Shown in pieces: positions 1,475 through 16,028 of a stretch of DNA of 64,000 nucleotides (positions are counted from its first letter, which is position 1; each line of letters begins with the position of its first letter). A program made the position numbers and the translations under genes. The stretch comes from Planctomycetota bacterium. Lineage in GTDB: Bacteria; Planctomycetota; SZUA-567; H5-PLA8. The notes beneath the pieces are model-generated. The model was not told where the DNA came from and did no database searches. It saw only the letters and a program-made list of their open reading frames with translations. The DNA lies in the NCBI GenBank assembly GCA_038227875.1, contig JBBRPR010000003.1, forward strand, positions 96,001-160,000, given 5' to 3'.

Positions 1475-2668
1475 CTATTTCTTCTTTCGCTTTGCTTCCG
1501 CCGACAGCGGCATGTTCCAGACCTTCATGAAGCCTTCGGCCGCTTCGTTGTTGAGCGCGTCGCGCTCGGAGTTACCGGCCGTGTAGAGACTGAATTCGCT
1601 CGAACGCGCGACGATCGTCGCCAGGCCTTTGTACAAGCGCATCGTCACTTTGCCGGTGACGTTCTTGTTGATGCGTTCGTAGAAGCTGTCGAGCGCTTCG
1701 CGCAGGTCGCTGAACCACTGGCCGTTGTAGACGGCGCGTCCATAAGCGGTGGCCAGACCTTCGCGCACCTGCAGCGTTTCGCGCGAGAGGCACATCTGTT
1801 CCAGCGCGCGCTTGGCGCTGTAGAGCACCGTGGCGGCGGGCGCTTCGTAGACTTCGCGCGATTTGAATCCGATCAGGCGGTCTTCGATCACATCCTTGCG
1901 CCCGATGCCGTGTCCGCCGGCCATGGTGTTGAGCTTGTCGATCAGCGGCACGGGATTCATGCGCTTGCCGTTGATGCCGATGGGCAGGCCTTCGCGGAAT
2001 TCGATCTCGATCATTTCCGGTTCGTTGGGCGCGGCCATCGCGCTGACGGTCATCGTGTACGCTTCTTCCGGCGGCGGCTTGGACGGATCCTCCAGCGCTC
2101 CGCACTCGATCGACTGCCCCCACAGATTGCGGTCGTAGCCGTAACGCATGCCGGTCTGAGACTGCTTGGGCAGCGGCAGGCGCTTGGCCTTGGCGTACTC
2201 CAGACGCTGTTCGCGGTCGCGGTATTCCCACTCCCGCAGCGGCGCGACGATCTTGATGTACGGCGCGAGCACGCCGATGCTCGCTTCAAAGCGGATCTGG
2301 TCGTTGCCCTTGCTCGAACACCCGTGAGCCACGTGGGTGGCGCCTTCTTCCGAGGCGACGCGGACGAGCTCGCGCGCGATCAACGGCCGCGACAACGCGG
2401 ATGCGAGCAGGTAGTGAATTTCGTAATGCGCCAGCGCGCGCAGCGACGGCGTGATGTAATCCTTGAAGAACACCTCGCGCAAGTCTTCCACGCGTGCCGA
2501 AACCGCGCCGGCCCGCAGCGCCATTTCGCCGAGGTCGTCCAGATCGTCGTAGCCCTGTCCCAGATCGATGGCCAGCGCGACGACGTCGAGATTGCGCCGC
2601 TCCTTCAGCCACGAAATGGCGACGAGCGTGTCGAGACCCCCCGAAAATGCGAGCACACACTTGGCCAT
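1475..2668 (-). CDS. argG: Argininosuccinate synthase
   Basis: Motifs LAFSGGLDT, LSRPLIA, HGCSSKGNDQIRFE, DRNLWG and KSREVYEAP; ATG at 2668. Confidence 0.95.
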   Translation of the reverse strand: MAKCVLAFSGGLDTLVAISWLKERRNLDVVALAIDLGQGYDDLDDLGEMALRAGAVSARVEDLREVFFKDYITPSLRALAHYEIHYLLASALSRPLIARELVRVASEEGATHVAHGCSSKGNDQIRFEASIGVLAPYIKIVAPLREWEYRDREQRLEYAKAKRLPLPKQSQTGMRYGYDRNLWGQSIECGALEDPSKPPPEEAYTMTVSAMAAPNEPEMIEIEFREGLPIGINGKRMNPVPLIDKLNTMAGGHGIGRKDVIEDRLIGFKSREVYEAPAATVLYSAKRALEQMCLSRETLQVREGLATAYGRAVYNGQWFSDLREALDSFYERINKNVTGKVTMRLYKGLATIVARSSEFSLYTAGNSERDALNNEAAEGFMKVWNMPLSAEAKRKKK

Positions 2669-2735
2669 AAGCAACGCTCCTTCAAGCCCCGCGATTATCG
2701 CGCACGTGTGAGGGGATGGCAACGGTAAATAGAGT

Positions 2736-2897
2736 GGCGGCTCTTGGGTGTTAGCTCTCGGCTCTTGGGATTCCTGTCAGGCGAAGGTAGCTCCAGTGGA
2801 TGGCGCGGGGTGGACACCCCGCCCTGACACCCCGCGACGGCAGGATGCACTCCGCCCCTCGCACCCCCAAGAGCCAAAAGCTAAGAGCCAGGAGCCG
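2736..2897. repeat. Second GCTCTTG/CAAGAGC heptamer element, inverted relative to 1368-1474
   Basis: 2880-2897 is the exact reverse complement of 1368-1385; 2736-2747 is the exact reverse complement of 1463-1474. Confidence 0.8.
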
Positions 2898-2967
2898 CTT
2901 TCCCCCTTAATTCCATACGAAGCCGCCCGATGAGTTCGACAGTTGGTGTTCTCGGGGGAGAGTCAAC

Positions 2968-4521
2968 GTGCAGATTCAGACGGGGCCTGCCACTGCGGTC
3001 GGCCAGATTGATGTGTCACCGGATCAGACCGGTCAGGCCCTGGCTAACGCCAAGCCCGATCAGCTCATCCAAGCGCGCGTGCAGGCGGCCAGTGATGGCA
3101 GCGGCGCGATCATCAATCTGCTCGGCAACACCTTCCGTGTGCCGCCTTCGCTGGATCTGCCGATGGGATCCCAAGTGCTGCTGCGCGTGATGGAAAATTC
3201 CGGCGGCCGCCTGCAACTCGACATTTTTTCGCATCTGCCGCAGAAAGGCGCCACCTCGTCGCAGCGTGCGGGAGATTCTGCCGGCGCGCAGGAGCTCGGC
3301 ACGTTCGAAGCCACCGTGGAACTGGAGATCCCGTCGTCGGAAGTCGTCTCGCGGAAGGCCTCCACCAGCAACGCCGAATGGCAGGCGCTTTCGGACGAAG
3401 ATTACTCCGGCCAGCACCTGCCGACTAAACATGCCGACGAGACGGAGACGCCGGACGCGGCGGGAAAAGCCGGAGACTCCAAGCAGCCCGCCACTACGCG
3501 TCAATCCTCGTCGAGCAACGTCCGCATTCCTCCAGCGATCGCCGATCGGCTCGATGCGTACCAAACGTACGCGAGCGAAGCGGCTGACGCGACGGCGGCC
3601 AGCGACGTGCCGGCGCTGATGCAGCGCAAAGTCGACTTCGAGATGAATCTGCCCGCCGAATCCGCGCCCGCCGCCGCGGCTCTGGCGCGCGCGGGCTTGC
3701 CTGTCACCACGGCCAACGTCGTCAGCATCCGCCAGGCTCTGGCGCTGGGCCTCGCGCGCAGTCCGGAAACATTGGCGTGGCTGCGCGCGGCGCATGTCGA
3801 AGCCACTCCCGAACGCACCGCGGCGCTCGACAGCGTGCTGATGGCCAACGCCACCAAGCTCGGCGCGCTGCTGGCCCAATCCACGCCGGGGACCGCCGAG
3901 AACCTGCAGCCGATGCTGCTTCATCCCGAACGCCCGCCGGCGGAAGTCGCATCCGTCCTGCGCGACGTTCTGACGCACCTGACGCACGCGGAAGCCGGCG
4001 CGACGAAAACTGCCGCGCAGTCGGCGCAACTGGTGAGGGACGCATTTCCGGCGCTCCATCCCGATGCCGACCCGCGCGCCGCGGACGTCGCCACGAATTT
4101 GCGCGGGCAACTGCTGCTGCCGGCCGTTCAAGCCCGCACCGATGCGCCGCCGCAGGGGCTTTATCTGCAGATGCCCGTGCAGATGGGCGCGCAGCTGCGC
4201 ACGCTCGAATTGAAAATCACCCAGCGCCATTCCAGCCAGAGCCACCATGACGTGCCGGACATCACCGATATTTCCGTGCGACTGGACACCGAAGCCTTCG
4301 GCCCCGTCGACGCGCGCTTGACCGCGTTGGGGCGCAACGTCGCGCTGGCGTTTACGTTTCAGAACGCCGGGGCGCTGCGCACCTTTCAGAACGCTCAGGA
4401 AGAACTGCGCGCCGGCCTGGCCGAACAGAATGTGGCCTGCGGCGCGATCGTCTGCCGCGTCGCCCCAACGCTCCCGCCGCTGACGCACGACGGACGCTTG
4501 AACGTGGATGCGCGGGGATAA
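2968..4521 (+). CDS. Flagellar hook-length control FliK-like protein (C-terminal FliK domain)
   Basis: Low-complexity Ala/Pro-rich body; C-terminal YLQMPV..LELKI..SVRLDTEAFGPVDARL..EELRAGL; lies directly before an FlhB-C-like gene. Confidence 0.65.
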   Translation: MQIQTGPATAVGQIDVSPDQTGQALANAKPDQLIQARVQAASDGSGAIINLLGNTFRVPPSLDLPMGSQVLLRVMENSGGRLQLDIFSHLPQKGATSSQRAGDSAGAQELGTFEATVELEIPSSEVVSRKASTSNAEWQALSDEDYSGQHLPTKHADETETPDAAGKAGDSKQPATTRQSSSSNVRIPPAIADRLDAYQTYASEAADATAASDVPALMQRKVDFEMNLPAESAPAAAALARAGLPVTTANVVSIRQALALGLARSPETLAWLRAAHVEATPERTAALDSVLMANATKLGALLAQSTPGTAENLQPMLLHPERPPAEVASVLRDVLTHLTHAEAGATKTAAQSAQLVRDAFPALHPDADPRAADVATNLRGQLLLPAVQARTDAPPQGLYLQMPVQMGAQLRTLELKITQRHSSQSHHDVPDITDISVRLDTEAFGPVDARLTALGRNVALAFTFQNAGALRTFQNAQEELRAGLAEQNVACGAIVCRVAPTLPPLTHDGRLNVDARG

Positions 4522-4857: not shown

Positions 4858-5286
4858 TCAGATGTTCAGCAGCCAGAGAATGACGCCCGGCACTGCGGTC
4901 AGAAGTCCACACACTTTCATCACGTTGCTCAGCACTCGATTCGTGCCGACGCTGTCCACGGCCGGCAAGCTCAGCAAAATGGGATCGGTCGGACTGGTGA
5001 TGCGCGATTTGTTGGCTACTGCAAGCGCCCAAGCGGCGGTGCTTGCGCGCACGATCCGGTTGTAGTTCCAGCGCAGCAGCGCGAAGATCAGGCTGCAGCC
5101 AATCAAAAATGTTCCGTAGGGCGGACCAAATCCGGGCAGACTCATCAGCACGGTACCAATCACCGAACCGGCTGCCGCAGCAACACACGCCAGGATTGTC
5201 GAAGCGATCACCGTGCTGATGGTCGTCTCGTCCGGAACAACATCCGGAAGCGGTGGCGGCATGATGTAGGATGGCAATTCGTCCAT
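4858..5286 (-). CDS. Hypothetical membrane protein
   Basis: 142-aa ORF with about 3 hydrophobic segments. Confidence 0.55.
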   Translation of the reverse strand: MDELPSYIMPPPLPDVVPDETTISTVIASTILACVAAAAGSVIGTVLMSLPGFGPPYGTFLIGCSLIFALLRWNYNRIVRASTAAWALAVANKSRITSPTDPILLSLPAVDSVGTNRVLSNVMKVCGLLTAVPGVILWLLNI

Positions 5287-5295
5287 GGAATCAGT

Positions 5296-5765
5296 TTACT
5301 TCGGTTTCAAAGCGCTGCCGCGAAAACTCCTCACGAGACCTCCTGGACGATGGTCCAGACACAGCGCGGGTGCGACGAGTTTCGCCGGTTGTTCCGGTTT
5401 GGCCGGCCGGAACTTCGCGGAGAGTTCGCGGCGGTTGAGCGTCAGTAGGCGCTGTTGCTCGTCGGGCGGGAATTCCGCGATCTTCGCGGCAGTGGATACC
5501 GCGAGTGCACCTTGATCCATTTGCCGATCAGTTCCGGAATGCCATTTTGGAGCAGCCGGCGTGCTCGATCGACGCTTGTGCCGGAGACATTGAAAATCTT
5601 GCCGACAACCTGCCTCGTCTTGCCCGGGCACCAATTGGTGCCCCGCCGAGTTGAAGGGGGTGCATTCCGTCGCTGCTCCACTTCATCCTCAAAATGAGGA
5701 AACATCCGCGCCGCCACCATCGCGCGCTGATTCTCCTTCAAGTGCCGCCGCCGCAGGTTCGCGAT
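5296..5765 (-). pseudogene. 5'-truncated, frameshifted remnant of a ParB-like/HTH mobile-element gene
   Basis: IANLRRRHLKENQRAMVAA...VSGTSVDRARRLLQNGIPELIGK, then after a frameshift near 5520 MDQGALAVSTAAKIAEFPPDEQ; an in-frame stop lies just upstream. Confidence 0.6.
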
Positions 5766-5862
5766 CGTTAGTTATTGAAATTAAATGTGTTATGAACGGC
5801 AAAAAGTTGGGATTATATTATTGGAAATGGATCTTGGAGCGCAGGGGCGCCTTGAAAAGGAG

Positions 5863-9832: not shown

Positions 9833-10927
9833 CTAGCGCTCATTCAGATCGAAGTAGAGCTTTCCACTCCTGATTTCGAAATTCATATCGAACGAGCCAC
9901 AGATGAAATGAAGCCATCTATCGGCGATCATCGGCGGTCCGCTTAAATCCAGAGTTGTGCTGATTGTGAGTCGCTTCGCCTCAAGGCGCTCCGAGAAAAC
10001 GCACTCCAATCCGGTCAGATCTTGGATTCTTGTCTTTAGTCGTTGGAGATCGATGTCATCCAGCCCGCAATATACTTCCAATTGCATCCGTCGATCGACC
10101 GGCACCAGTAGTGGAGTCCAGCCGTCAGGCGTGTCGGGAATTTTCACGATGTGGACATCCAAGGATTCTGCCTGCTGCTTGATTTGACAGAGCCAAGTGC
10201 TGAGGACAGCGATGCGTCGCTCAAGTTCGATCTTCTTGCGTCCGTAGTAGCTTCCCCGGTCGAGCTCAAATTGTTTAAAGCGCTCCACCTCAAGTCGCAC
10301 CAATGCTGCTGCGCGCACGTCAAGCTGGTCGGAATAATTCAAGGCGCCATTCTTGATTCGAGGTCCGTTCCATTCAAATGCCACGCCCTCATCAATGCGA
10401 TCTTCAAGATGTTGCTGATCCGTCGCAGCGGCAAAGTAGGTTTGCAGAGATTTCACGGACGCGGCGTACAAATCCTTTTTTCGCTGCGCCACTTCCGCGG
10501 TAATTGCCGCGCCCAATCCCGCTTGCTCATTTTTTACGGCTCGGATTTGGCTTTCCAGTTGTTGCAACACGGGTGCCGCCTCGCGTGCCCTTGGCCCGCA
10601 GAGCAAACGCGCACCCATGTAACCACCCAGCGCCACAGTCAGTGCGAAAACCAGATAGTGGCTGATGCGCCGCCCCTCCGATCGAAAGGCAATGCGCACC
10701 ACCAGGCCGGCTCCAATTGCGCCCAGACACGCGCCGGACAGCAGCTCATTGTCCGCGCGATTCCACGCCGCCGCGAACCCGAGCGTATACGCGGCTATCC
10801 ACTCCAGCATTGTCGCCAGCGAAAAACGCGTCTGCTCGCGCAGTTTCCCGGCGATGCGACTTTTGAACCGAGCGCGGGGCGGAGTTGCAACGGCGGGAGG
10901 CGCAATTGGATCTTCAAGTACAGCCAT
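9833..10927 (-). CDS. Paralog 1 of the same family
   Basis: RFSLATMLEWIAAYTLGFAAAW and GWTPLLVP; same layout as paralogs 2 and 3. Confidence 0.8.
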   Translation of the reverse strand: MAVLEDPIAPPAVATPPRARFKSRIAGKLREQTRFSLATMLEWIAAYTLGFAAAWNRADNELLSGACLGAIGAGLVVRIAFRSEGRRISHYLVFALTVALGGYMGARLLCGPRAREAAPVLQQLESQIRAVKNEQAGLGAAITAEVAQRKKDLYAASVKSLQTYFAAATDQQHLEDRIDEGVAFEWNGPRIKNGALNYSDQLDVRAAALVRLEVERFKQFELDRGSYYGRKKIELERRIAVLSTWLCQIKQQAESLDVHIVKIPDTPDGWTPLLVPVDRRMQLEVYCGLDDIDLQRLKTRIQDLTGLECVFSERLEAKRLTISTTLDLSGPPMIADRWLHFICGSFDMNFEIRSGKLYFDLNER

Positions 10928-11018
10928 AGAATTCCTCCACGACGATTGGACGACGATGGCCACTGAGCATTACACGGAGATTGTCGATTTTTCTCACAAA
11001 ACCCTTGCCCTCTTCAAA

Positions 11019-11045
11019 TTCATAGTGTTAAGTAAACACTATGAA
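11019..11045. promoter_or_regulatory. Palindromic operator, NrtR-box-like
   Basis: TTCATAGTGTT-AAGTA-AACACTATGAA: perfect 11-bp arms with a GT-N7-AC core, 12 bp upstream of the TIGR02452 start. Confidence 0.65.
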
Positions 11046-11057
11046 GGAGAGATTACT

Positions 11058-11912
11058 ATGAAACAAACACAACGCGTCACTGCAGCCAAGAAGACGCTGG
11101 AGATTATCGAACGGGGCGGCTACGCGAATCCTGCGGGACAAGACGTCCCGCTGCGCGCCGCGATCGAGCGCTGCGTCGGTGGTTCGAAATTGTATCTGCC
11201 GGAAGAACTGGACGTCCTCCGCGACGCCGTACTGGCCCAGTCCAAGCCCTACGCCACGACGCGGTTTGAACTTCGCAACGAAACCACGCTGGAAGGCGCG
11301 CTGCGCGTGGTCCGCAGCGGCGAATTCTCGAACGTCGCCGCGCTGAACTTCGCCTCCGCGCGCAATCCCGGCGGCGGATTCCTCGGCGGCGCGCAAGCGC
11401 AGGAAGAGAGCATCGCGCGCAGTTCGGCGCTGTATGCGAGTCTGCGGGCGTGTTTCGCGTTCTATGAATACCACCGCGGCATGCAATCGCTGCTCTACAC
11501 CGACCGCATGATCTACACGCCGCAGTGCCCCGTCTTCCGCACCGACAACGGCGCGCTGCTGAACGAGCCCTACTGCTTGAGCATCATTACCAGCCCGGCG
11601 CCGAACGCGGGCGCGCTGCAGCGCAACCAGCCGCAGGACGTGGCGAAGATCCCCGGCGTCTTCCGCGAGCGCACGGCCAAACTCCTGGCGCTGGCCGTGG
11701 AGCAACACTGCGACGCGCTGCTTCTCGGTGCGTGGGGCTGCGGCGTATTCAAGAATTCGCCCGCTGTCGTGGCCTCAACGTTCCGCGAACTCCTGGCGCC
11801 TGGCGGGGCCTTTCACGGACGCTTCAGTTTCGTGCTCTTCTCGGTCTACGACACGACCGAGGGTCTGCCGATCTACACGGAATTCGCGAAGCAGCTCGAA
11901 GAGTTCTGCTAG
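11058..11912 (+). CDS. TIGR02452 family PARG-like macrodomain protein
   Basis: LNFASARNPGGGFLGGAQAQEESIARSS and LGAWGCGVFKN; AGGAG RBS before the ATG at 11058. Confidence 0.9.
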   Translation: MKQTQRVTAAKKTLEIIERGGYANPAGQDVPLRAAIERCVGGSKLYLPEELDVLRDAVLAQSKPYATTRFELRNETTLEGALRVVRSGEFSNVAALNFASARNPGGGFLGGAQAQEESIARSSALYASLRACFAFYEYHRGMQSLLYTDRMIYTPQCPVFRTDNGALLNEPYCLSIITSPAPNAGALQRNQPQDVAKIPGVFRERTAKLLALAVEQHCDALLLGAWGCGVFKNSPAVVASTFRELLAPGGAFHGRFSFVLFSVYDTTEGLPIYTEFAKQLEEFC

Positions 11913-12541
11913 CCAGAACTCTCCAGCGTGAATTCCGACCCGGTGTACACCCGCACCGGATTTCCGCGCTCCAGGCTCTGGTGCTGCGCCCAGCGCTGCC
12001 GCTCGACGTGTTGAGCGGCGGCGCCGCTCTTTTGCGCGAGGGCTTCGGCCAAACGCGCGAAGGCGAGTTTCCGATTCGCGTGTTGCGAACGTTCTTCGCG
12101 ACCAACCACGACCAGGCCCGTGGGGACGTGCCGGATGCGCACGGCGCTTTCCGTTTTGTTCACGTGCTGACCGCCCGGACCACCAGCGCAGAGAAATGAA
12201 ATCTCGATCTCTTTCATCGACCACGCCGGTTTTTCCGGGACGCTCAGCGCATTGACGCCGACGAACCAGTTTCGCCGCTTGTAGTTCGCCCGGAACGGAC
12301 TCTTGCCGATCCACAGCACCGTTCCGGTCCACGTGGCGAGAAAGGCGGCGAGTCCCCGGCCGTCGACGGCCGTCAGCACCGAGTCGAGCGTCCCTGACTC
12401 GCGTCCCGCGACCGAATGCAGCAGCGTCACGCCGATGCCCACGCGCTGGGCTTCGCCGCAGAAGCAGCGCAACACGCGGGGCACGACCCAGGCGCATTCC
12501 GATGGCCCCTGCCCTGCGGTAATTTGAAGCCAGCAGCTCAT
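11909..12541 (-). CDS. prfH: Peptide chain release factor H
   Basis: LQITAGQGPSEC, WIGKSPFRANYKRRNWFVG, GPGGQHVNKTESAVR and ERGNPVRVY; ATGA overlap with rtcB. Confidence 0.95.
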   Translation of the reverse strand: MSCWLQITAGQGPSECAWVVPRVLRCFCGEAQRVGIGVTLLHSVAGRESGTLDSVLTAVDGRGLAAFLATWTGTVLWIGKSPFRANYKRRNWFVGVNALSVPEKPAWSMKEIEISFLCAGGPGGQHVNKTESAVRIRHVPTGLVVVGREERSQHANRKLAFARLAEALAQKSGAAAQHVERQRWAQHQSLERGNPVRVYTGSEFTLESSG

Positions 12542-13668
12542 CGCGCCTCCCTTCGCACCTTATAGGTGATCAGCGGCCGCAGGCGCGCGATCACGCGCAC
12601 CAGACCGGCCTGGACCAGATCGTTGACGACCACATCGACATTTTTGTACGCCTGCGGCGCTTCTTCGTAGAGCAGATCGCGATCTTCGCAGATCACGCGG
12701 CCGCCGATTTCCGTGCGCACCAGCTCCGCTTCGTCAAAGCGCCCGCGCAGCCGCGCGCGACAGTCGGTGCGATTCCATTTCCGGCCCGCGCCGTGCGAGA
12801 GACTCCACGCATGCGCCGCCTGCTCGCTGACCTCACCCCGCGGCATCACGAGGTAAGAGAGCGTGCCGCGGCTGCCGGGAATCATCAGCGCGCCGCGCGT
12901 CGAGGGGTTGGCTCCCTTGCGGTGCACCCACGCTTCGCCGCTCGACTCCACACGCTCGATGTAATTGTGCGGCAGGTCGAGCACCGTCTGCGCCTCCGAA
13001 CCCAGCGCATCCAGGAAACGGCTGGCGATCAATGCGCGACTGGCCTGCGCCCACGTCACGGCGTAATCGTGAAGCGCCGTGTATTCGCGCGCGTCATCGC
13101 CGTCGGTAGGCAACGCAGCATAGCCGTGCTTGAGCATGTGCGAGCGCAGGACGTCATGCCCGAGGCCCCGCGAGCCGCTGTGGACGAGCACCACGAGGCG
13201 GTCCTCGTCGAGTCCCAGCGCGGCGAAGGCCGCCGCGTCATCTACGCGCTCCACCTGCTGCAGCTCGCCAAAGTGATTGCCGCCGCCGATCGTGCCGAGC
13301 GACTGATCCTGCGCGCTGGGACCGATCGCGAAGTTGCTGAGCCACTTTTCGCGATCGCCGTTCCACGGTTGATCGAGGTCCGTCAGTTTCTTCTCCCAGC
13401 GTTCCAGCTTCGCCTTGCGGGCCATTAAGTCCGACCGCCACAGCCCCATGCCGCAGCCGACATCGTTGCCGACCAGGTGCGGATAGATCACACCGCGCGA
13501 GACGAATGCCGCGCCGACCGGCCCGCATTTTCCGGGATGCAAATCCGGCAAGCCCACCGCCAGTTCCATTCCCGGCAGCCCGGCGGTCCCCTTGAGCTGC
13601 GAGACCGCGTTTCCTTCGATCCAATTTTCATCCGACGAAATCAGACGCACGTTTGCAGAGACGCTCAT
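12538..13668 (-). CDS. rtcB: RtcB-family RNA ligase, release factor H-coupled type
   Basis: Motifs PDLHPGK, GNDVGCGM, GGGNHF, HSGSRG, HRKGA, SHGAGRKW and LYEEAPQAYK; GAGGA SD before the ATG at 13668. Confidence 0.93.
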   Translation of the reverse strand: MSVSANVRLISSDENWIEGNAVSQLKGTAGLPGMELAVGLPDLHPGKCGPVGAAFVSRGVIYPHLVGNDVGCGMGLWRSDLMARKAKLERWEKKLTDLDQPWNGDREKWLSNFAIGPSAQDQSLGTIGGGNHFGELQQVERVDDAAAFAALGLDEDRLVVLVHSGSRGLGHDVLRSHMLKHGYAALPTDGDDAREYTALHDYAVTWAQASRALIASRFLDALGSEAQTVLDLPHNYIERVESSGEAWVHRKGANPSTRGALMIPGSRGTLSYLVMPRGEVSEQAAHAWSLSHGAGRKWNRTDCRARLRGRFDEAELVRTEIGGRVICEDRDLLYEEAPQAYKNVDVVVNDLVQAGLVRVIARLRPLITYKVRREAR

Positions 13669-13862
13669 AAAAATCCTCACGAATCCGCGCTGCGAAGCAC
13701 GGAGCATCACACGGTCCAGACGCAAAGCGCGGCTGGAAAAAGTGACAGCGCTGAACCGGTGCGCAGTTTGAGCGCGTAACGGCAGAGCTTCAGACGAGTG
13801 AGTTTGGGTTTGGCGGATCGTGAAGGATTCGAGCGTGGAACGCGGGGTGTTGCAGAACTATT

Positions 13863-13916
13863 TTACGCGAGCGCAGCGCCGGATTTCAGATCGCCGAGAT
13901 TCGTGAGGTGCGTCAT
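13863..13916 (-). CDS. Putative leader peptide MTHLTNLGDLKSGAALA (17 aa) of the rtcB-prfH operon
   Basis: AGGAG SD at 13928-13924, 7 nt before the ATG; TAA at 13865-13863; codons 3-7 are complementary to the rtcB SD region. Confidence 0.65.
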   Translation of the reverse strand: MTHLTNLGDLKSGAALA

Positions 13917-13999
13917 GGGAGTGCTCCTATTAGTGCAGTCGCGGCCGTTCTGCCGCGCCTATTGTGAGCATGAACAAACCCCATGAATCGCACGTTGTC

Positions 14000-14107
14000 A
14001 AGTCGTATGAAATATCGGCAGGGGTAATTATGTCCTGGAGCTTCTTGTTGCTGACGCAACCCGGCCCGAGGGGCCGGGCCACCCCTCGCGGGTTGTTCGG
14101 TCACGCT
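14000..14107. repeat. Second copy of the REPIN right arm
   Basis: Nearly identical to 5958-6051 (gtcctggagcttcttgttgct.acgcaacccggcccgaggggccgggccacccctcgcggg). Confidence 0.85.
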
Positions 14108-14156
14108 AGAGAAATTAGCGCGCCGCTACTTCGTCATTCGTTATTCGACATTCGCA

Positions 14157-14624
14157 CTACTTCTTCCCGTTCGCCTTCAGCAAATCCGCCAGCGCGGTTG
14201 CCAGTTCGGCATTTTTGCCCAACGTCCAGGACGGCGTGTTCAGGCGGACGACGCCCCATTCTCCGTCGCCGTAGACCCAGACCTGGCGGAGCATCTTCGG
14301 GCCTTTGAAGCAGCGCAGCGTCATCGCGATTTCGCCGGCGGAAGGTTCGACTTCCGAGATTTTCATCGCGTCGGTGATCTTCTTCAGATCGTCGGCGTCG
14401 GTGATGTTCGCTTTTTTCGGCAGGCTCTGGTCGGGCGCGGTTTTCTCGAGCACGATCTCGATGCGGTCGCACGATTTGATCGCGGGAAGATCGGAACCCT
14501 TCCCCTGCCCAAGCGCGGCCTTCTGCGTCTCCGCGTCTTTTTCGTGATCGTCGGCGCCATACGTGGCCGTGGCGGTCACGCAGAACAACACCAATAGGGG
14601 GAGCATTCGAAGCAGCGTGCGCAT
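14157..14624 (-). CDS. Hypothetical secreted protein
   Basis: 155 aa, N-terminal signal peptide, host-like codon usage. Confidence 0.7.
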   Translation of the reverse strand: MRTLLRMLPLLVLFCVTATATYGADDHEKDAETQKAALGQGKGSDLPAIKSCDRIEIVLEKTAPDQSLPKKANITDADDLKKITDAMKISEVEPSAGEIAMTLRCFKGPKMLRQVWVYGDGEWGVVRLNTPSWTLGKNAELATALADLLKANGKK

Positions 14625-14747
14625 GAGCGGGATCCTCTTTTCAGTCGAGACGGTGCCACGTTACGCCTGCGCCGCCTTCGCGTCAACGCGCGCGATTGCT
14701 CTGCGCGTTGAACTCCACCTGCGCTCCGCTACGATGATTTCCGCATC

Positions 14748-16028
14748 ATGAGCGCCGCCGATCCGTACTCCGCCCTTCGACTCCGCGATTTTCGCTGCTA
14801 TCTCGCCAGTTCCATGTTGGGCACGATTGGCTTTCAGGTCCAGATTCTCGCGGTGCGTTACGAAGTCTTCGGCCGCTCCAACGACGACTACATGTCGCTG
14901 GGTTGGATGGGCCTGCTGATGACCGCCCCCGCCCTGCTGCTCACGCTGCCGGCCGGACAGATTGCCGACTGGTTCGACCGCCGCCTGGTAATATGCATCG
15001 CGCTCTTTGTCGCCGCGTGCGGTGCGCTGGGTTTGTACTTCGTCTCCATCTACCACGGTCCCTTGTGGATGGTCTACGCCGCGGTGTTGTTGCGCGCGAC
15101 GGCCGGCACGTTCACACAACCGGCGCGCGGCGCGTTGCTGCCGCAGATCGTGCCCAACGATGAGCTGGCCAACGCGATCACGTGGAATTCCAGCAACATG
15201 CAAATGGCGCTAATGGTCGGCCCGGCGCTCGGCGGCTTCATCGCATCGAAGAGCATCTCCGCCGCGTACCTCACCGACGCCGCCTGCATGATTGTCTCGC
15301 TCTTCAGCATTCTTGCGATCCGCCACCGCCGCCCCGTGGCCAAGCGCGAACCGGCGACGCTTCACGCGGTGATGGCCGGCCTGCGTTACGTGACAAAAAC
15401 GAAAGTCATTCTCGCCACGCTGACGCTGGATCTGATGGCGACGATCTTCGGCGGCGCCACCGCGCTGCTGCCGGGTTTCGCCAAGAATATTCTTCACGTC
15501 GGCCCGACTGAACTGGGCTGGCTCAACGCCGCTCCGGCCGCCGGAGCGGTGGTGATGTCCGGATTGATCGCGCACTTCGGGCCGCTCAAGAACGCCGGCC
15601 GCGCGTTGATCATCGCCGTGATCGGCTTCGGCGCGGCAACGGCGCTGTTCGGCATCTCCGAATCGTTTTACCTTTCGCTCTTCCTGCTCTTCCTGACCGG
15701 CGCGTTCGACAACATCAGCGTGGTGGTGCGGCACACGCTGGTGATGGCGCTGGCGCCGGAGAACATGCGCGGCCGCATCTCCGCGGTCAACAGTTTGTTC
15801 ATCGGCGCGAGCAATCGCTTGAGCGATTTTGAATCGGGATTGACGGCGCGTCTCTGGGGCCCGGTGGCGTCCGTGGTTTTCGGCGGTGTGGGATCGATGA
15901 TCTGCGTTGTCGCCGCCGCGGTGAAGTGGCCGGAACTCCGTCAGATCGGTTCGCTGGAAGACTTGCGGCCCGGCATCAGTCCCGCTGAAGCCGAGGAGAA
16001 GGGCGTTGAAGAGAAGGCTCCAGCGTAA
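14748..16028 (+). CDS. MFS transporter (MFS_3/EntS-like)
   Basis: About 12 TM segments; AGQIADWFDRR and PENMRGRISAV. Confidence 0.9.
   Translation: MSAADPYSALRLRDFRCYLASSMLGTIGFQVQILAVRYEVFGRSNDDYMSLGWMGLLMTAPALLLTLPAGQIADWFDRRLVICIALFVAACGALGLYFVSIYHGPLWMVYAAVLLRATAGTFTQPARGALLPQIVPNDELANAITWNSSNMQMALMVGPALGGFIASKSISAAYLTDAACMIVSLFSILAIRHRRPVAKREPATLHAVMAGLRYVTKTKVILATLTLDLMATIFGGATALLPGFAKNILHVGPTELGWLNAAPAAGAVVMSGLIAHFGPLKNAGRALIIAVIGFGAATALFGISESFYLSLFLLFLTGAFDNISVVVRHTLVMALAPENMRGRISAVNSLFIGASNRLSDFESGLTARLWGPVASVVFGGVGSMICVVAAAVKWPELRQIGSLEDLRPGISPAEAEEKGVEEKAPA

Follow-up and report, generated by a model that had tools for sequence, protein, structure and literature searches.

To our knowledge, RtcB2-PrfH is the only known system that rejoins ribosomal RNA cut in the decoding centre, and we know of only one species, Pseudomonas aeruginosa, for which control of its production has been described; the same leader there also drives aminoglycoside-induced MexXY efflux. 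In that species armZ (PA5471) encodes an RtcB-like ligase, PA5470 is prfH, and the leader peptide PA5471.1, encoded upstream, controls both (accessible parts of PMC12057347 and PMC13041342). According to the same sources, the operon is induced when ribosomes are stalled by drugs or by suhB/cca mutations, and the model is one of transcription attenuation in which full translation of the leader favours a 3:4 terminator (PMC12057347, PMC13041342). The available text of a 2025 review adds that this attenuation model is still to be confirmed (PMC12057347). Here we analyzed the leader of an rtcB2-prfH operon carried on the minus strand of a 64,000-nt stretch of DNA from a member of the Planctomycetota (contig JBBRPR010000003.1, positions 96,001 to 160,000; hereafter the window, in whose coordinates all positions are given). 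Whether this leader is a leader-peptide sensor of translation trouble, the planctomycete counterpart of PA5471.1-armZ-PA5470, fitted with a four-element switch at the rtcB ribosome-binding site (RBS), is in our judgement an evenly balanced question. It is likely that the translation status of its upstream open reading frame (uORF) controls the operon at all, and only tentatively do we put forward the four-element RBS switch as the chief mechanism in this lineage.

We assigned the leader to the PA5471.1 kind on its layout, since promoter, leader ORF ~250 nt upstream, rtcB-like gene and prfH occur in the same arrangement. Both loci have a short leader ORF preceded by a Shine-Dalgarno sequence (SD) ~250 nt upstream of an RtcB-family gene that is followed by prfH, both have a promoter upstream of the leader (here a promoter-like box), and for both the proposed signal is a ribosome stalled on the leader. 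The window differs in coming from the Planctomycetota and in having a leader of 17 codons, whereas Morita in 2009 reportedly gave PA5471.1 13 codons. A 3:4 terminator has been published for the Pseudomonas leader, while here there is no evident canonical terminator and the RBS is sequestered by two anti-SD elements; the anti-repressor role of ArmZ has no counterpart in our locus. The lineage-specific double anti-SD arrangement may make this leader a translational variant of the PA5471.1 kind. A preliminary description of the locus, made by a model from the letters alone, had pointed to the PA5471.1/armZ/PA5470 precedent, which is indeed in print (accessible parts of PMC12057347 and PMC13041342). 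Its wider proposal of an SD-sequestration sensor of ribosome damage in a distant phylum stood as far as the leader-peptide kind and the conserved uORF are concerned, and only in part as to mechanism.

Two other groups of leaders are instructive. In translational attenuation of the ermC, cat and cmlA type, a ribosome stalled on the leader re-pairs the RNA among four interacting segments and thereby exposes a downstream SD. The locus in the window likewise has a leader ORF and four interacting segments, but its SD is 194 nt away from the leader stop instead of next to it, one anti-SD lies inside the leader ORF, a productive stall would occur on codons 1-2 and not on a specific internal codon, and no equilibrium ON state is predicted. 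The E. coli tnaC-tnaA and toiL-topAI operons are controlled by uORF-dependent Rho attenuation, and toiL responds to ribosome-targeting antibiotics. These resemble our leader in having a short uORF directly followed by an unstructured C-rich tract and a sequestered downstream RBS, and differ from it in that the regulated genes are unrelated and that Rho action here is only a candidate. As to the genes themselves, the RtcB2-PrfH module of E. coli has the same two protein families, in the same order and likewise overlapping (PMC9304027, PMC9223846, PMC13166195). The accessible part of one of these papers mentions no native leader or induction mechanism (PMC9223846), and that of the 2006 paper in which a prfH hypothesis was put forward mentions no leader.

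The leader ORF and its conservation

The uORF (13863-13916) was read from the sequence as 17 codons plus TAA, encoding MTHLTNLGDLKSGAALA. Its SD, AGGAG (13924-13928), lies 7 nt before the ATG; the uORF begins 248 nt ahead of the rtcB ATG (13668), and 194 nt separate its stop from that ATG. The preliminary description had reported this AGGAG-N7-ATG frame, and we confirmed every coordinate of it on the minus strand. We looked for relatives in the GTDB family of the source organism, which is known from metagenomic assemblies only and whose own assembly consists of 176 contigs (9.3-Mb genome). The operon was present in 5 of the 17 genomes of the family, our own included, with RtcB identities of 68-72%; the four relatives are metagenome-assembled genomes of Planctomycetota, and a scan of genome contigs recovered the same four. 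A metagenome scan added L063, whose RtcB is 92% identical, and L064, L068 and L069 (60-71%). We thus had nine distinct clade leaders: the window, L002, L003, L004, L005, L063, L064, L068 and L069. In a global alignment of the nine, the promoter and the beginnings of the uORF and of rtcB were the only parts aligned reliably, and the alignment was therefore not used for covariation. When we compared four DNA sequencing runs, we obtained short identical fragments only and no variant useful for covariation.

The frame was found to be kept across the clade. The leaders of the window and L063 are 80% identical over 315 nt, and the uORF of L063 encodes an identical 17-residue peptide, the 3 of 54 nucleotides that differ all being synonymous third-position changes. 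SD-preceded uORFs of 17-20 codons occur at homologous positions in eight of the nine clade leaders, the uORF of L069 having 42 codons; the SD itself was scored as present, by the criteria of the scan, in 8/9. The uORFs of L004 and L005, 20 codons each, differ at 6, 6 and 13 sites in the first, second and third codon positions. The preliminary description had named an alignment of leaders for a conserved uORF as a check, and it came through this check well. Judged from these sequence comparisons, the uORF is a conserved coding frame and probably a genuine, translated leader ORF.

The peptides of the clade begin MPRTTTN, MKLTTTA, MPRPTTL, MQPTQTT, MPQTKTT, MTQTTTL, MMYTHTH and MTHLTN. In these eight distinct peptides, threonine accounts for 22 of the 48 residues at positions 2-7 (46%; 13913-13896 in the window) as compared to 5.5% in the long ORFs of the genome, a figure that overstates the enrichment since the sequences are related. 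The Thr-rich start might reflect an effect of codons or tRNAs, an effect of the nascent peptide, or no more than an unstructured RNA poor in G. In other phyla, too, there are leaders whose starts are rich in threonine and histidine (THTH, MTH). We also considered the sensing of tRNAs cut by colicin E5-type toxins (His, Tyr, Asn and Asp codons) and rejected it; the idea fits L003 and a group of MRNIHTHN-type peptides and does not fit the other clade peptides.

Upstream of the uORF we noted a -35-like box, TTGACA (13996-14001), and 17 nt after it a -10-like box, TTTGTT (13973-13978). The TTGAC of the former is invariant in the alignment and stands at the same place in 9/9 clade leaders, with an SD and a short ORF 58-85 nt downstream; at the -10 spacing the relatives have the T-rich hexamers TTATTT, TTAGTT, TTAAGT, TAAGCT and TATTGT. 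From these boxes, transcription would start near 13966, giving a leader transcript of ~300 nt with a small 5' hairpin between the promoter boxes and the uORF SD. A second sigma-70-like site, CTGAAA-18-TAAAAT (9/12 matches), lies inside the uORF at 13889-13860. If active, it would give transcripts that lack the uORF and retain anti-SD 2, an element described below. In an RNAalifold analysis of the window and L063, the seven bases at 13965-13971 paired with 13661-13667 in the region of the rtcB start codon, with two pairs changed on both sides. The 5' arm of this pairing may precede the real transcription start, so that the pairing may be a coincidence.

Pairing between the leader and the rtcB ribosome-binding site

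The rtcB ribosome-binding region (13672-13688), which contains the SD core GAGG (13678-13675), is the 3' arm of two helices, A (13685-13675) and A' (13688-13672). The 5' arm of helix A, anti-SD 1, consists of uORF codons 3-7 (13898-13908). Here CCTCACGAATC (13908-13898) matches the reverse complement of GATTCGTGAGG (13685-13675) at every base, and a repeat search listed the two as an 11-nt pair with 100% complementarity; the preliminary description had been right about this pairing. All 11 pairs are formed in the window and 10 of the 11 in L063. We found that helix A rules the unconstrained ensemble, with probabilities of 0.97-0.99 for 8 pairs and -17.2 kcal/mol, and that the rtcB SD is paired in the resting RNA, P(unpaired) of GAGG being 0.00. 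The z-score of the whole-leader fold was a modest -1.78. When the window uORF was shuffled with dinucleotides preserved, 0/200 shuffles paired as well with the 25-nt rtcB RBS region; the corresponding numbers were 1/200 for L063 and a marginal 4/200 for L064. The pairing scheme was therefore beyond shuffles in only two of the nine clade leaders with a third marginal, and the conservation of pairing that the preliminary description had proposed to look for in relatives was not borne out.

To gauge helix A against its genomic background, we counted SD-ATG-long-ORF sites in the same genome, and 27 of the 4961 (0.54%) had a perfect complement of at least 11 nt to the RBS 25-mer no more than 300 nt upstream. 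Helix A is accordingly rare per gene, and a chance meeting is expected about once in four when ~50 genes, or a 64-kb window, are scanned. At such a chance rate helix A needs support from elsewhere. In the RNAalifold structure of the window and L063, helix A was kept in its 8-bp core and a further helix, D, in full.

Helix D involves a second anti-SD. This element, anti-SD 2 (AAUCCUUCACGAUCCGC; 13813-13829), is a near-duplicate of anti-SD 1, lies in the C-rich spacer 85 nt beyond it, and is the 5' arm of helix A', in which 16/16 pairs form with 13688-13672 across 2 bulges (-21.7 kcal/mol in the window; 13/16 pairs in L063). The 5' arm of helix D is uORF codons 8-12 (13883-13895), a candidate anti-anti-SD, and its 3' arm (13828-13812) overlaps anti-SD 2. 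All 13 pairs of helix D are present in both the window and L063, and the L063 change A13884G/U13827C is compensatory. Just upstream of the SD is a local hairpin, UCCGUGC-UUCGCA-GCGCGGA (13684-13703). A mid-leader anti-SD as a specific element of the whole clade was tried and rejected, since it was not beyond shuffles except in the window (0.025).

The preliminary description had assigned the ON state to another helix, B, whose 5' arm (13872-13885) pairs with 13694-13682. The pairing is there, at 13/13 pairs with one bulge in the window and 10/13 in L063, where three pairs are lost and one compensatory and two one-sided changes are seen. Its role as the ON helix was rejected, the pair probability being 0.00 in every fold, whether the RNA was left unconstrained or had a ribosome placed over its early codons. 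With the early codons held single-stranded, a test that the preliminary description had suggested, the SD was not freed; it re-paired with anti-SD 2 (13829-13813), an element that this description had missed, and stayed closed (P 0.00). As the SD was paired at equilibrium wherever the ribosome was placed, the RBS could be opened only kinetically.

We then considered nascent transcripts ending at 13805-13690. The mean probability of helix D was 0.78-0.93 when the uORF was either empty or occupied by a ribosome with its P site at codon 1 or 2, fell to 0.00-0.03 with codon 4 or 8 in the P site, and was 0.60-0.89 with a ribosome at the uORF stop codon. When helix D was enforced and a ribosome placed on codon 1, a weak AU/GU hairpin was all that held the SD. 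In L063, scanning a ribosome footprint of 28 nt along the uORF gave P(SD free) of 0.10, 0.27 and 0.21 at codons 1-3 and 0.03 or less elsewhere.

These folds suggest the following scheme. The rtcB RBS could be locked by either anti-SD, through helix A with uORF codons 3-7 or through helix A' with the spacer. As long as the uORF is free of ribosomes, helices A and D would form together and the operon would be OFF. A ribosome moving through codons 4-12 would melt helix D and let helix A' form, so that the operon would again be OFF. The operon would be ON only if a ribosome came to a halt with its P site at codon 1 or 2; it would cover anti-SD 1 while the free codons 8-12 hold anti-SD 2, and the RBS would then be left in the weak local hairpin alone. 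Such a ribosome would be one that is able to initiate and not to elongate, for example on account of decoding-centre damage or a drug block. The ON state would be kinetic and co-transcriptional and not an equilibrium state, helix D forming before the SD is transcribed, and in the OFF states transcription is probably also ended early by Rho, owing to the C-rich tract that lies naked behind the uORF stop. The stall on the first leader codons envisaged in the preliminary description is thus possible kinetically via helix D, and not via helix B or at equilibrium. In its most specific form, the leader would be a start-proximal stall detector in which two redundant anti-SDs are set against codons 8-12 as anti-anti-SD, the RBS opens only upon arrest at codon 1-2, and the Thr-rich start is part of the signal; we regard this form as speculative and rather unlikely to hold in full.

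Several observations weigh against the four-element switch. In the window, P(SD core unpaired) was 0.00 wherever the 28-nt footprint was placed on the 18 codons of the uORF, and the helix D ON state lay 5.1 kcal/mol above the helix A' (OFF) state. Covariation could draw on a single close relative, L063, which offers one compensatory pair in helix D; the same A13884G is also compensatory in helix B (with U13683C), and helix A' loses three pairs in L063. The U13683C change breaks one pair of helix A without compensation, and coding and SD constraints alone can explain the conserved arms of that helix. The uORF:RBS pairing was no better than shuffles in L002, L068, L003, L004, L005 and L069 (6/9; fractions 0.15-0.89), and none of 24 leaders from other uORF families had a shuffle fraction as low as 0.05. 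In most clade leaders, neither the mid-leader:RBS pairing nor the pairing between uORF and anti-SD went beyond composition-preserving shuffles. The start site is placed from the sequence, and there is the sigma-70-like site within the uORF. Lastly, loss of leader initiation in P. aeruginosa is said by Morita in 2009 to have led to constitutive expression, for which the four-element model predicts OFF.

Premature termination and other explanations

We also examined the leader for features of transcription termination. A C-rich, G-poor tract that starts at the uORF stop (13796-13873; 78 nt, C 32, G 11) is a candidate rut site; its score is 0.27, and random 250-nt stretches of the genome reach 0.25 or more in 2.9% of cases. 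Comparable tracts no more than 20 nt from the uORF stop are present in 6/9 clade leaders (scores 0.24-0.32), and the genome encodes Rho (682 bits, cut-off 509). Further downstream, a branched GC-rich hairpin (13743-13792; -15.8 kcal/mol, reached by 0/12 shuffles) is followed by C-UUUUU-CC. It is a weak candidate for an intrinsic terminator, as its U-run (13741-13737) begins only after CAC, and a consensus terminator scan called none in the leader. A GC-rich hairpin of -11 kcal/mol or stronger with a U-rich run was found in five of the nine leaders as against 16 of 108 shuffles. Folding also gave a hairpin CCAGCCGC-GCUUU-GCGUCUGG (13716-13736); a hairpin with a different stem was seen in a similar place in 9/9 clade leaders, as judged by eye in the unreliable alignment. 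No antiterminator alternative appeared in any fold of the window leader. Composition and layout recur across the clade and the specific long-range helices do not. These termination-type features fit a uORF-linked premature termination at least as well as they fit a translational switch, and the two are not exclusive.

Control of the operon might accordingly be mainly transcriptional. After normal translation of the uORF, Rho acting at the C-rich tract, or the hairpin and U-run (13792-13737), would end transcription before rtcB, and a stalled ribosome or the RNA refolding that it causes, such as helix D occupying the C-rich tract, would prevent this. RBS sequestration would then merely keep rtcB untranslated so that termination can act, and helix A would be a lineage-specific extra. 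We consider this a possible but doubtful account. The recurrence of the tract and of the hairpin with its U-run, the presence of Rho, and the conservation across the clade of composition-level features and not of long-range helices all speak for it, as does the description of the Pseudomonas system as transcription attenuation (accessible parts of PMC12057347 and PMC13041342). That model, however, awaits confirmation according to the available text of the review (PMC12057347). The branched hairpin of the window, with its delayed U-run and no consensus call, also tells against it, and so do the two leaders (L068 and L005) that are without a terminator-like site and the want of an antiterminator in any fold; an anti-SD platform, moreover, would look C-rich too.

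A less probable view is that the uORF is a genuine leader and helix A a by-product without regulatory role, arising from a chance match of CCUC to the SD with arms that are constrained for other reasons. The genomic rate of such complements (0.54% of sites, or about one in four per 64-kb window) is in keeping with this, as are the failure of helix A to be conserved in 6/9 clade leaders and in all 24 leaders of other families and the sole 3'-arm substitution in L063, which breaks a pair uncompensated. Nevertheless, in the window as in L063 it is helix A that dominates the pairing of the SD, and its nesting with helix D and with the near-duplicate anti-SD 2 looks designed and not accidental; we find the by-product view improbable. 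More improbable still is an untranslated uORF, or one upstream of the real start, within a structured 5' untranslated region that responds to a protein, small RNA or metabolite: the sigma-70-like site (9/12) at 13889-13860 and two long blocks, of 24 and 27 nt, in which the window and L063 do not differ, taken as RNA-level or protein-binding constraint elsewhere in the leader, would suit it, while the synonymous-only changes in the uORF, its frame and length kept across the clade, its strong SD at the correct spacing, the -35 box conserved upstream of it in 9/9 leaders and the lack of any Rfam family at E of 1 or less speak against it.

The two identical blocks lie on the minus strand at 13779-13802 (24 nt) and 13697-13723 (27 nt), the rest of the leader being ~80% identical, and neither has another copy in the genome. 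The former contains UCUGAA, a string also found in the uORF and in several relatives. The Rfam scan covered 11000-16000.

The operon and leader peptides in other phyla

The rtcB2 gene (12538-13668; 376 aa, ATG at 13668) encodes an RNA ligase of the PrfH-associated RtcB subfamily. Its product scored 501 bits against NCBIfam PRK09588 (cut-off 407) and was also over the curated cut-off of TIGR03073 release_rtcB. The prfH gene (11909-12541; 210 aa) scored 231 bits against TIGR03072 release_prfH (cut-off 166.65), and its start overlaps the end of rtcB2 by 4 nt. The upstream border of the rtcB2 leader is a gene of 155 aa without known family, read on the minus strand at 14624-14157. At the other end, a microbial-type PARG / TIGR02452 gene (10665-11912, plus strand) converges on the operon with its end overlapping the prfH stop, so that the unit is rtcB2-prfH alone. 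The genome also has three RtcB paralogues, whose start codons are uncertain, and no uORF was found in front of any of them. Of the 401 genomes of the phylum that were sampled, only 5 gave a PrfH over the curated cut-off, and in two of these five there was no rtcB2 beside it. The loci in question are L061 (G242, 2462-3202, minus strand) and L062 (G068, 5125-5766, plus strand), both Planctomycetota prfH over the TIGR03072 cut-off with no rtcB2 adjoining. In L062, prfH comes directly after a GspE/PilB-type ATPase with a GspD secretin upstream, unexpected company for a stand-alone PrfH.

In a general scan of 65 distinct rtcB2 leaders, 27 had an SD+ATG ORF that was 8-40 codons long, as compared to 16 on the reverse complement. 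Given that comparison, the SD+ATG criterion is weak by itself. We clustered candidate peptides from 129 leaders, and the upstream regions of loci L080-L221 were found to hold separate, conserved leader-peptide families in other phyla. These comprised a 17-aa family in Melainabacteria (MLQSTSRE.., 9 loci), one in Acidobacteria (..TTRPS.SM.GIAST, 5 loci), one of 31-33 aa in Alphaproteobacteria (MRTATAA.., 4 loci), one in Enterobacterales of the Kosakonia type (MTHHALISLCRPLQA, 4 loci) and an MRNIHTHN/MINTYTHTR type of 8-9 residues (4 loci). A full-text search of the accessible literature returned no description of rtcB2 leader peptides outside Pseudomonas.

If the proposed switch is true, colicin E3-type damage to the decoding centre would arrest ribosomes at codons 1-2 of the leader, and translation of the repair operon would scale with the share of ribosomes that are damaged. 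The window supplies a concrete, mutable pairing scheme that is open to reporter testing. Taken across phyla, the leader families suggest that the sensing of ribosome trouble by a tiny ORF is a general and repeatedly re-invented property of the rtcB2-prfH repair module.

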